Under the pieces are notes generated by a model that saw only the letters and a list, made by a program, of their open reading frames with translations, had not been told where the DNA came from and made no database searches. 64,000 bases of DNA from Escherichia coli (GTDB taxonomy: Bacteria > Pseudomonadota > Gammaproteobacteria > Enterobacterales > Enterobacteriaceae): NCBI RefSeq assembly GCF_044324875.1, contig NZ_CP172185.1. The stretch is one strand, 5' to 3'. The position numbers and the translations under genes are program-made. Below are positions 25,018 to 48,900 of the stretch, one piece after another. How positions within the stretch are numbered: position 1 is the first letter of the stretch; each line of letters opens with the position of its first letter.

Positions 25018-25230
25018 TTGTCCCGTAAAATGACAGGAATTGTCAAAACCTTTGATCGCAAAAGCGGCAAAGGATTCATTATCCCCTCCGACGGTCGTAA
25101 AAAAGTCCAGGTCCATATTTCCGCATTCACTCCCCGCGACGCAGAAGTGCTTATACCAGGATTACGTGTGGAATTTTGCCGCGTAAATGGCCTGCGAGGA
25201 CCAACAGCGGCAAATGTTTATTTGTCTTGA
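25018..25230 (+). CDS. cspH: Cold shock-like protein CspH
   Basis: 70 aa [70 protein letters not shown]. Confidence 0.9.
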
Positions 25231-37175: not shown

Positions 37176-38366
37176 ATGAGTGTACGTTTAGTGTTAGCCA
37201 AAGGGCGCGAAAAATCATTACTTCGTCGCCATCCGTGGATCTTTTCCGGGGCCGTTGCCCGCATGGAAGGTAAAGCCAGCCTCGGGGAAACCATCAATAT
37301 TGTTGATCATCAGGGAAAATGGTTAGCACGCGGCGCTTATTCGCCAGCTTCGCAAATCCGGGCGCGCGTCTGGACGTTTGACCCGAATGAATCTATCGAC
37401 ATTGCTTTTTTTACCCGCCGTTTGCAACAAGCGCAAAAATGGCGTGACTGGCTGGCGCAAAAAGATGGCCTCGACAGCTATCGTTTAATCGCCGGAGAAT
37501 CTGATGGCCTGCCGGGTATTACTATCGATCGTTTCGGTAATTTTCTGGTGCTGCAACTACTGAGTGCTGGCGCAGAGTATCAGCGCGCGGCATTAATTAG
37601 CGCCCTGCAAACGCTGTACCCGGAATGTGCGATTTACGATCGCAGCGATGTTGCGGTACGTAAAAAAGAAGGGATGGAGCTGACCCAGGGCCCCGTCACC
37701 GGCGAGTTGCCGCCTGCCCTGCTGCCGATTGAAGAACACGGCATGAAGCTGCTGGTGGATATTCAGCACGGACACAAAACGGGCTACTACCTGGATCAGC
37801 GTGATAGCCGCCTGGCTACCCGCCGCTACGTTGAAAATAAACGCGTACTGAACTGTTTCTCCTATACCGGTGGTTTCGCCGTATCGGCACTGATGGGCGG
37901 TTGCAGCCAGGTTGTCAGCGTTGATACCTCCTAGGAAGCCCTGGATATTGCACGGCAGAACGTTGAGCTGAACAAACTGGATCTGAGCAAGGCTGAGTTT
38001 GTCCGTGATGATGTCTTTAAATTGCTGCGTACCTATCGCGATCGCGGTGAAAAATTTGACGTTATCGTGATGGACCCGCCGAAGTTTGTTGAGAATAAAA
38101 GCCAGTTGATGGGCGCGTGTCGTGGCTATAAAGATATCAACATGCTGGCGATTCAGTTGCTGAATGAAGGCGGTATTCTCCTGACTTTCTCCTGTTCTGG
38201 CCTGATGACCAGCGATTTATTTCAGAAAATCATCGCAGATGCCGCAATTGATGCCGGTCGTGATGTACAATTTATAGAGCAGTTCCGTCAGGCAGCCGAT
38301 CATCCGGTGATCGCTACCTATCCGGAAGGGCTATATCTGAAAGGGTTTGCCTGTCGCGTCATGTAA
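37176..38366 (+). pseudogene. rlmI: rlmI (23S rRNA m5C1962 methyltransferase) interrupted by an in-frame amber codon at 37932..37934
   Basis: ORFs 37176..37934 and 38022..38366 are in the same frame and together span exactly the 396-codon length of RlmI; the only break is TAG at 37932..37934 in the context [18 protein letters not shown]. Confidence 0.85.
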
Positions 38367-38741
<375 letters not shown>

Positions 38742-38754
38742 TCCCTGAACAAAT

Positions 38755-38788
38755 CCCCGGAAGGTTTTTGCCTTCCGGGGATTTTTTA
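38755..38788. terminator. Bidirectional terminator between hspQ and yccU
   Basis: ccccggaaggtttttgccttccgggg hairpin followed by attttttatt. Confidence 0.65.
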
Positions 38789-47092: not shown

Positions 47093-48145
47093 ATGAAAAA
47101 GACAGCTATCGCGATTGCAGTGGCACTGGCTGGTTTCGCTACCGTAGCGCAGGCCGCTCCGAAAGATAACACCTGGTACACTGGTGCTAAACTGGGCTGG
47201 TCCCAGTACCATGACACTGGTTTTATTCCTAACAATGGTCCGACCCACGAAAACCAACTGGGTGCAGGTGCTTTTGGTGGTTACCAGGTTAACCCGTATG
47301 TTGGCTTTGAAATGGGTTACGACTGGTTAGGTCGTATGCCGTACAAAGGCGACAACATCAACGGCGCATACAAAGCTCAGGGCGTTCAGCTGACCGCTAA
47401 ACTGGGTTACCCAATCACTGACGATCTGGACATCTACACTCGTCTGGGTGGTATGGTATGGCGTGCAGACACCAAGGCTAACGTACCTGGTGGCGCATCT
47501 TTTAAAGACCACGACACCGGCGTTTCTCCGGTTTTCGCTGGCGGTGTTGAGTACGCGATCACTCCTGAAATCGCTACCCGTCTGGAATACCAGTGGACCA
47601 ACAACATCGGTGACGCACACACCATCGGTACTCGTCCGGACAACGGCATGCTGAGCCTGGGTGTTTCCTACCGTTTCGGTCAGGGCGAAGCAGCTCCAGT
47701 AGTTGCTCCGGCTCCAGCTCCGGCACCGGAAGTACAGACCAAGCACTTCACTCTGAAGTCTGACGTTCTGTTCACCTTCAACAAAGCAACCCTGAAACCA
47801 GAAGGTCAGGCTGCTCTGGATCAGCTGTACAGCCAGCTGAGCAACCTGGATCCGAAAGACGGTTCCGTAGTTGTTCTGGGTTACACTGACCGCATCGGTT
47901 CTGACGCTTACAACCAGGGTCTGTCCGAGCGCCGTGCTCAGTCTGTTGTTGATTACCTGATCTCCAAAGGTATCCCGGCAGACAAGATCTCCGCACGTGG
48001 TATGGGCGAATCCAACCCGGTTACTGGCAACACCTGTGACAACGTGAAACAGCGTGCTGCACTGATCGACTGCCTGGCTCCGGATCGTCGCGTAGAGATC
48101 GAAGTTAAAGGCATCAAAGACGTTGTAACTCAGCCGCAGGCTTAA
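47093..48145 (+). CDS. ompA: Outer membrane protein A (non-K-12 loop allele)
   Basis: Signal peptide [21 protein letters not shown], beta-barrel, APAPAPAP hinge and C-terminal OmpA domain; about 350 aa. Confidence 0.95.
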
Positions 48146-48189: not shown

Positions 48190-48900
48190 TGCACAGAAAA
48201 CCCCCAGCTAGGCTGGGGGTTCCGGAAAGCTTTCAGCTTTGAGCCAGTTATTAAAACCCCTTTTGATTTGTTAAAACACCTTGCGGTCTGGCAACTGCAA
48301 GTGTCAAACAAGAAATCAAAAGGGGGTCCCAATGGGGAACGAAAAGAGCTTAGCGCACACCCGATGGAACTGTAAATATCACATAGTATTTGCGCCAAAA
48401 TACCGAAGACAGGTGTTCTACAGAGAGAAGCGTAGAGCAATAGGCTGTATTTTGAGAAAGCTGTGTGAGTGGAAAAGTGTACGGATTCTGGAAGCTGAAT
48501 GCTGTGCAGATCATATCCATATGCTTGTGGAGATCCCGCCCAAAATGAGCGTATCAGGCTTTATGGGATATCTGAAAGGGAAAAGCAGTCTGATGCTTTA
48601 CGAGCAGTTTGGTGATTTGAAATTCAAATACAGGAACAGGGAGTTCTGGTGCAGAGGGTATTACGTCGATACGGTGGGTAAGAACACGGCGAAGATACAG
48701 GATTACATAAAGCACCAGCTTGAAGAGGATAAAATGGGAGAGCAGTTATCGATTCCCTATCCGGGCAGCCCGTTTACGGGCCGTAAGTAACGAAGTTGGA
48801 TGCAAATGTCAGATCGTGTGCGCCTGTTAGGGCGCGGCTGGTAAGAGAGCCTTATAGGCGCATTTGAAAAACCTCCGGCTATGCCGGAGGATATTTATTC
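48190..48900 (+). mobile_element. IS200-like insertion sequence (IS200/IS605 family); boundaries approximate
   Basis: Roughly 0.7 kb block between the ompA terminator and the matP 3' end, encoding a Y1/HuH transposase and carrying subterminal hairpins cccccagctaggctggggg (48201..48219) and cctccggctatgccggagg (48872..48890). Confidence 0.8.
48332..48790 (+). CDS. tnpA: IS200 transposase TnpA (Y1 HuH)
   Basis: 152 aa MGNEKSLAHTRWNCKYHIVFAPKYRRQVFY...HIHMLVEIPP...; the HxH motif and conserved Tyr are typical of IS200/IS605 TnpA. Confidence 0.9.
   Translation: MGNEKSLAHTRWNCKYHIVFAPKYRRQVFYREKRRAIGCILRKLCEWKSVRILEAECCADHIHMLVEIPPKMSVSGFMGYLKGKSSLMLYEQFGDLKFKYRNREFWCRGYYVDTVGKNTAKIQDYIKHQLEEDKMGEQLSIPYPGSPFTGRK

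Follow-up and report, generated by a model that had tools for sequence, protein, structure and literature searches.

The rlmI gene (yccW) of this Escherichia coli strain raises the question of whether a gene for a 23S rRNA methyltransferase is truly broken by one nonsense codon and, if so, how that codon arose and how recent it is. The gene lies within the window, which is the whole 64-kb stretch of DNA that was analysed. A first-pass annotation of this DNA had reported that rlmI is interrupted by a single in-frame amber codon, and this is what is found: translation of the gene gives 397 codons in one frame, in which codon 253 is the sole internal stop and is followed at the end by a normal TAA. 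New to the present analysis are the proposed mechanism of the change, how recent it is and how it recurs, and a parallel amber in rutE; the Dcm hotspot and the polymorphism within the clone had been overlooked in the earlier one. The coordinates of the features discussed are given in Table 1.

Genomic context of the window

The window is a segment of the E. coli chromosome that is collinear with strain C4, with the gene order rutR ... tor ... app-hya-serT-yccA-tusE-yccX-rlmI-hspQ ... ompA ... pyrD. The single tRNA gene across the 64 kb encodes tRNA-Ser(UGA) (serT). Draft assemblies and SRA-run assemblies of the same clone are 99.98–100% identical to the window (GCA_958308375.1, GCA_002467655.1, SRR8502383, SRR21142071, SRR31072984 and others), and no close relative was found among the complete RefSeq E. 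coli genomes, the best of which reaches approximately 98.9% over 24 kb. Assignment of the window to Shigella was rejected, as it contains no repeated IS, its sole mobile element is one IS200-like copy, and drafts labelled E. coli match it at the identities given above.

Several other features of the window lie outside rlmI. The IS200-family element is missing from the same spot in C4, and the draft contigs of the clone break at this element, a sign that the genome has other copies of it. The ompA gene (47093–48145) encodes a 350-aa OmpA variant with 12 extra bases and just 95.7% identity to the 346-aa allele of C4; it is the most divergent gene of the window, and its exact protein is widespread in Enterobacteriaceae. 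The group 4 capsule region gfc-etk-etp, which in K-12 sits between cspH and appA, is absent between cspH (25018–25230) and appA (25218–26528), and C4 likewise is without it. Past pyrD, a minus-strand ORF of 245 aa (63212–63949) is found where C4 has ssuE, and gene content differs at this junction. An apparent frameshift in rutD relative to C4 was rejected as a lesion; it is a length variant of 266 or 270 aa, the sister loci and other loci also call the 266-aa product, and the K-12 RutD is presumably 266 aa as well.

Identity of rlmI and of the interrupted codon

The rlmI gene was aligned to that of C4, the closest complete genome (99.6%), which gave five substitutions in 1191 nt and no indels. 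Four of the five differences are synonymous or D41N, and the one that disrupts the gene is the T for C at 37932, so the comparison with a reference rlmI that the first-pass annotation had called for leaves this base as the sole disruption. Codon 253 had been given as Gln (CAG), and it is CAG in C4 and Gln in the K-12 protein (PDB 3C0K, 'UPF0064 protein yccW'), which reads VVSVDTSQEALDIA around residue 253. With Q253 restored, the protein aligns with 3C0K over residues 1–396 (E = 4e-266) and reaches 888.5 bits with NF011707 (COG1092), the NCBIfam equivalog model for RlmI, which has a cut-off of 712 bits and thereby places it among the RlmI orthologues. The order yccA-tusE-yccX-rlmI-hspQ-yccU is as in C4, with yccX-rlmI-hspQ in the conserved position.

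The two ORFs that had been assigned to the gene (37176–37934 and 38022–38366) do lie in one frame as claimed; their stated sum of 396 codons does not hold, however, as 252 and 114 give 366. Codons 254–282 are in frame but upstream of the TTG used as the start of the 114-aa ORF, and it is the whole frame that contains the 396 codon positions of RlmI.

Table 1. Features of the rlmI locus, other annotated elements of the window, and backgrounds that carry the same rlmI change
Feature	Position or loci	Strand	Basis or remark
rlmI (yccW), 23S rRNA m5C1962 methyltransferase gene, broken by one nonsense codon	37176..38366	+	C4 rlmI 99.6%, no indels
Coding part still translated, 252-aa fragment (PUA, central domain, first SAM motifs)	37176..37931	+	Pfam, NF011707
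Former Dcm site, lost by the change of CCAGG to CTAGG; inner (Dcm-target) C at 37932	37931..37935	.	Window against C4 and sister loci
Premature amber TAG, codon 253, ancestral CAG (Gln)	37932..37934	+	Against C4, PDB 3C0K and sister isolates
DPPK, methyltransferase motif IV, residues 300–303	38073..38084	+	Downstream of the stop, untranslated as RlmI
SCS motif with catalytic Cys, residues 339–341	38190..38198	+	Downstream of the stop
rutE amber, codon 89, TGG to TAG (G5675A), CCTGG to CCTAG	5674..5676 (rutE 5410–6000)	+	Dcm site
IS200-family transposase gene, between ompA and matP	48281–48790 (element roughly 48190–48870)		NCBIfam NF033573, 145.9 bits
C757T background, S. sonnei	L002, L004–L007		25–26 sites unlike the window, the closest at a distance of 8 bp; W92 to TGA present as well
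C757T background, E. coli	L032		Distinct haplotype
C757T background, E. coli	L030		Distinct haplotype
C757T background, E. coli	L031, L033, L034 group		Closely related to each other

Predicted consequences for RlmI

Two domains are identified by Pfam in the full-length protein, PUA_3 at residues 6–68 and Methyltrans_SAM at residues 111–357, and of the latter only residues 111–252 are left in the fragment. The fragment keeps the PUA and EEHEE domains, the NCFSYTGG motif (226) and the VDTS motif (249–252), and ends right after VDTS. The first-pass annotation had predicted a truncation at 252 aa with loss of the C-terminal part of the methyltransferase domain, which agrees with the location of the DPPK and SCS motifs, both of them 3' of the stop. 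Against NF011707 both pieces fall below the cut-off, the 252-aa fragment with 546.5 bits and the C-terminal ORF of 98 aa that begins at ATG 38070 with 224.1 bits. No obvious Shine-Dalgarno sequence was found before this ATG, and if both pieces were made they would still lack residues 253–298, so loss of activity is strongly expected. Judged by its sequence, the gene is orthologous to rlmI but is predicted not to be a functional member of the family, the ORF being interrupted and both motif IV and the SCS cysteine lying outside the product.

The catalytic cysteine of RlmI is that of the SCS motif near the C-terminus, and the 23S rRNA of a yccW-deficient strain is without m5C1962 (PMC2836557). 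With DPPK and the catalytic cysteine gone, this strain should have little or no m5C1962. To our knowledge, no other enzyme makes m5C1962. At a UAG codon of E. coli, near-cognate read-through incorporates Gln, so a trace of wild-type RlmI could be remade.

The phenotypes described for loss of rlmI are mild: a slight growth defect in E. coli, reduced biofilm and, for the V. cholerae deletion mutant, a lower fitness in tobramycin, ciprofloxacin and triclosan at sub-MIC levels (PMC10117853). RlmI takes part in the assembly of the 50S subunit under kanamycin, and kanamycin tolerance is reported to be promoted when c-di-GMP inhibits the enzyme, with R64, R103, G114 and K201 as the reported c-di-GMP-binding residues (PMC11894153). 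All four of these residues are retained in the 252-aa fragment.

The stop codon may also bear on the next gene. No terminator-like structure was found between rlmI and hspQ (38367–38423), the only strong one being located after hspQ (38751–38784), so the rlmI stop could be polar on hspQ if hspQ needs read-through transcription. A scan for promoters and terminators around rlmI-hspQ returned sites that were no more numerous than in shuffled sequence.

Dcm context of the rlmI amber and a second amber in rutE

The change at 37932 is a C to T at the second C of a CCWGG site, and its direction is polarised by the sister isolates and by outgroups. The second C of CCAGG is the classic amber hotspot of lacI and is absent as a hotspot in Dcm-minus E. 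coli B (PMC12606429), and CCWGG still counts as a hotspot, at its methylated base, in data on over 100,000 mutations of E. coli (PMC13250602). The T:G mismatches that result are normally corrected by Vsr-dependent very-short-patch (VSP) repair (PMC2715241). Within rlmI there are 131 possible single-base nonsense changes, of which 31 are G:C to A:T and three are at Dcm targets (Q171, Q245 and Q253).

A survey of the 62 C4-annotated genes with a counterpart in the window identified rutE as the only broken gene besides rlmI. The rutE amber is the version of the same event that is expected from deamination of the bottom strand, and it is the sole Dcm-target nonsense change among the 53 that are possible in rutE. 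The sequence CCTAGG occurs only twice in the window, at the rlmI and rutE ambers. A sister locus (L071, GCA_029450875.1) has G at 5675 and is otherwise identical to the window over 12,000 bp, so the rutE amber is recent too. It is also found on at least five divergent E. coli backgrounds that are 97–98% identical to the window. The rutE product is the malonic semialdehyde reductase of the pyrimidine utilisation operon, and the gene is unrelated to rlmI; some of the backgrounds with the rutE amber also carry rutA or rutG split in two ORFs.

The rlmI gene of the window is very probably a young pseudogene that was produced by a C-to-T change at a Dcm site, probably through deamination of 5-methylcytosine that went past Vsr, and that yields a product inactive on C1962. 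The proposed course of events begins with an ancestor of the clone that had an intact rlmI, in which the inner C of C-5mC-AGG (Gln253) would have been methylated by Dcm, whose gene, like vsr, is located outside the window. Spontaneous deamination of the 5-methylcytosine to thymine, escaping Vsr repair, is the most likely route to CTAGG and an in-frame UAG, at which translation would end after residue 252. The fragment would contain the PUA domain, the central domain and SAM motifs I and II and would be without motif IV and the catalytic cysteine, so that C1962 would be left unmethylated and the ribosomes would be without m5C1962 or would have traces of it via UAG read-through. As rlmI is non-essential and the phenotypes of its loss are slight, such an allele could persist and spread through the sub-clade.

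An ordinary replication or repair error, which by chance placed a C-to-T change inside CCAGG with no role for Dcm, is the explanation against which the hotspot has to be weighed, and it is considered unlikely. It is favoured by G:C to A:T being the commonest base substitution, and by five of the six SNPs private to the sisters being G:C/A:T transitions outside Dcm sites, although these are unpolarised and are G:C to A:T if the window is ancestral. Dcm targets also show no excess of change relative to C4, with transitions at 3 of 405 Dcm targets (0.7%) versus 592 of 32,151 other G/C positions (1.8%; P = 0.13), so the hotspot is not visible here as a general substitution bias; two of the three Dcm-target transitions are the rlmI and rutE ambers themselves. 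Such low divergence at Dcm targets would be expected if VSP repair were efficient or if conversion brought CCWGG back over time, with deleterious alleles being transient at the tips of the tree. The nonsense mutations point the other way: both of those in the window, which were found by an unbiased survey, fall at Dcm targets, and these targets account for approximately 2% of the possible nonsense changes and approximately 8–10% of those that are G:C to A:T.

Recurrence of C757T in other lineages

The C757T change in rlmI is present on at least four other haplotypes, including that of S. sonnei, and therefore on at least five backgrounds when the window is counted. S. sonnei and at least three further E. 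coli haplotypes with C757T differ from the window at 25–31 sites. The mutation of the identical site on at least five rlmI and at least five rutE backgrounds argues against an ordinary error without Dcm. A comparison of codons within rlmI was made on the K-12-type protein background with the 24 longest contigs per query, and only contigs that run past a genuine TAG were counted. A real internal TAG was found on 6 contigs at Q171, 10 at Q245 and 16 at Q253, which are Dcm sites, and on one contig each at the non-Dcm codons Q197 and Q208, these being small numbers of contigs rather than of independent events, with two control codons only. The excess of TAG at Dcm over non-Dcm CAG codons is suggestive of a Dcm effect and also speaks against a chance error, for which the existence of nonsense alleles at non-Dcm Gln codons is a point in favour. 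Tallies of the truncated products that end at each of ten Gln codons were rejected as a test of the hotspot, as they did not separate Dcm from non-Dcm codons and most of these products were from genes cut by contig ends.

The rlmI pseudogene of S. sonnei has the identical C757T and shares its synteny with the window, and the product of its 114-aa C-terminal ORF, which is annotated there on 615 contigs, is that of the window. It differs from the window at 25–26 of 1191 sites, and T is present in all five of its haplotype loci. The S. sonnei gene contains two nonsense codons, W92 TGG to TGA (gene position 276, non-Dcm) and Q253 TAG (757), and has IS1 copies close by; 1-bp deletions at 487 (L002) and 231 (L004) are perhaps assembly errors. 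In the clone of the window, unlike in S. sonnei, the amber is a minority polymorphism and there is no second lesion. In one further locus (L003, GCA_900449085.1), codon 253 is still CAG, and it is a 1-bp deletion at rlmI 799 that yields the same 114-aa C-terminal ORF; this deletion is either a lesion of independent origin or an indel error of long-read sequencing.

According to the first-pass annotation, a knock-out would be refuted if codon 253 were a stop in reference alleles. Such alleles do exist in S. sonnei and in some E. coli, but they are pseudogenes too, and the TAG-bearing 66-mer, in either of the common local haplotypes, has no match among 5,426 complete RefSeq E. coli genomes, so the function of the gene is not rescued by them. 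A search of 100,044 species-representative genomes with the TAG-bearing 42-mer also gave no exact match, which is uninformative since the clone of the window is not a species representative.

Positive selection for the loss of rlmI, for example through aminoglycoside tolerance, is compatible with an origin at the Dcm site, which would just supply the mutation, but such selection is distinctly unlikely. The reported promotion of kanamycin tolerance by c-di-GMP inhibition of RlmI would be in keeping with it, as would the presence of the allele in approximately 10 sampled isolates and of a version of it in every S. sonnei locus examined. The lack of any match to the 66-mer among the complete genomes shows that, S. 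sonnei aside, the T allele is rare among E. coli; this weighs against strong positive selection, as do the fitness cost of rlmI deletion in V. cholerae under sub-MIC drugs and the slight growth defect in E. coli described above. The genome of S. sonnei is, moreover, generally rich in pseudogenes. A broader reading is quite improbable: the clone would have weakened VSP repair or raised Dcm activity, making Dcm ambers its dominant source of knock-outs, and/or rlmI loss would be repeatedly selected through hypomodification linked to aminoglycoside tolerance and c-di-GMP-linked ribosome assembly, with the fragment perhaps being more than debris.

Age and authenticity of the amber codon

A truncated RlmI of 247 aa, called from the GTG at codon 6 (P0016), is encoded on approximately 10 contigs from different samples that are 99.99–100% identical to the window, among them GCA_958308375.1, SRR8502383 and SRR21142071. 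These samples are represented by NCBI assemblies and by Logan assemblies of separate SRA runs. The exact 252-aa product has no match in the public gene calls, which start at the GTG of codon 6. Five sister loci (L015–L019), aligned to the window over 8–21 kb, have C at 37932 and encode an intact N41/Q253 RlmI, and apart from 37932 they differ from the window by 0–2 further SNPs (32390 and 47800), which are private to the window. The intact N41/Q253 form is far commoner than the amber form, with 115 index blocks for the 396-aa protein and more contigs for the 391-aa form. As the sisters are nearly identical to the window yet have C at 37932, the amber is a young polymorphism within the clone and not an old pseudogene or an imported tract, and a stop that is present in approximately 10 assemblies and premature relative to the intact orthologues of the sisters makes the gene a pseudogene.

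The SNP at 32390 is in codon 501 of hyaB (Gly501Ala, GGT to GCT), and that at 47800 is a synonymous change in codon 236 of ompA (CCG to CCA). Both are absent from all sister loci, amber carriers included, which implies that the source strain has diverged somewhat within the amber sub-clade, or that the amber arose twice in the clone.

The sister loci also bear on the import of the amber by homologous recombination from a carrier lineage such as S. sonnei or other E. coli, which is very improbable. T757 is available in other lineages and conversion tracts in E. coli can be short, but kilobases of flank on both sides of the stop are identical to the intact sisters. S. sonnei differs from the window at 37940, which is 8 bp downstream, and at 37844 and 37847, which are 85–88 bp upstream, so a tract from this donor could be at most 92 bp, and one from an L030-type donor is limited to approximately 185 bp. 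VSP repair of a T:G heteroduplex in such a context would furthermore favour C.

It is highly improbable that RlmI is still made through suppression of the UAG, by a glnV/supE-type tRNA or by efficient read-through. A Gln-inserting suppressor would restore the exact wild-type RlmI, and both broken genes of the window carry an amber rather than an ochre or opal codon; TAG is, however, the only stop that deamination at a Dcm site can make, and the bias towards TAG therefore has a simpler cause. The one tRNA gene of the window is that for tRNA-Ser(UGA), both ambers are recent single SNPs rather than conserved recoding sites, and UAG suppressors are rare among natural isolates. Finally, that rlmI is truly intact and the TAG a sequencing or assembly error is barely conceivable, since a one-base difference from thousands of complete genomes looks error-like but the change is a substitution rather than a homopolymer indel, and its presence in approximately 10 independent assemblies excludes a private sequencing error.

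Relation to known systems and significance

An origin of the rlmI amber by deamination at a Dcm site would place it with the amber hotspots of lacI, where the same CAG-to-TAG change at the second C of CCAGG (G:C to A:T) is recurrent (Coulondre, Miller, Farabaugh & Gilbert 1978; PMC12606429). The lacI hotspots were found in laboratory mutants of a reporter gene, with Dcm dependence shown by the comparison with E. coli B, whereas the rlmI ambers are natural alleles in wild lineages whose dependence on Dcm is suggested by their context and recurrence. Engineered K-12 knock-outs of yccW/rlmI, as related in later papers (Purta et al. 2008, via PMC2836557 and PMC10117853), have lost the enzyme, with an expected loss of m5C1962, and are viable with a slight growth defect. 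They were made by deletion or insertion in a strain of the laboratory, and they differ in this from the allele of the window, which may still yield the 252-aa N-terminal fragment. No literature was found on rlmI/yccW as a pseudogene in Shigella or mentioning the amber allele.

The event is real but ordinary. Both of the kinds to which it belongs are well known: the loss of a dispensable gene to a nonsense codon, and the amber at a Dcm hotspot. The presence of two Dcm ambers in one 64-kb window raises the question of a defect in VSP repair in this clone. The clone also offers natural, near-isogenic CAG/TAG pairs with which the role of m5C1962 could be tested in a wild background. The rlmI amber is a clean natural case of the textbook Dcm hotspot, with codon 253 mutated in several E. 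coli lineages and in S. sonnei. For annotators and for population genomics, this recurrence at the same codon means that TAG codons at CCAGG/CCTGG sites are to be expected as homoplasies, and not as signs of shared ancestry or recombination.
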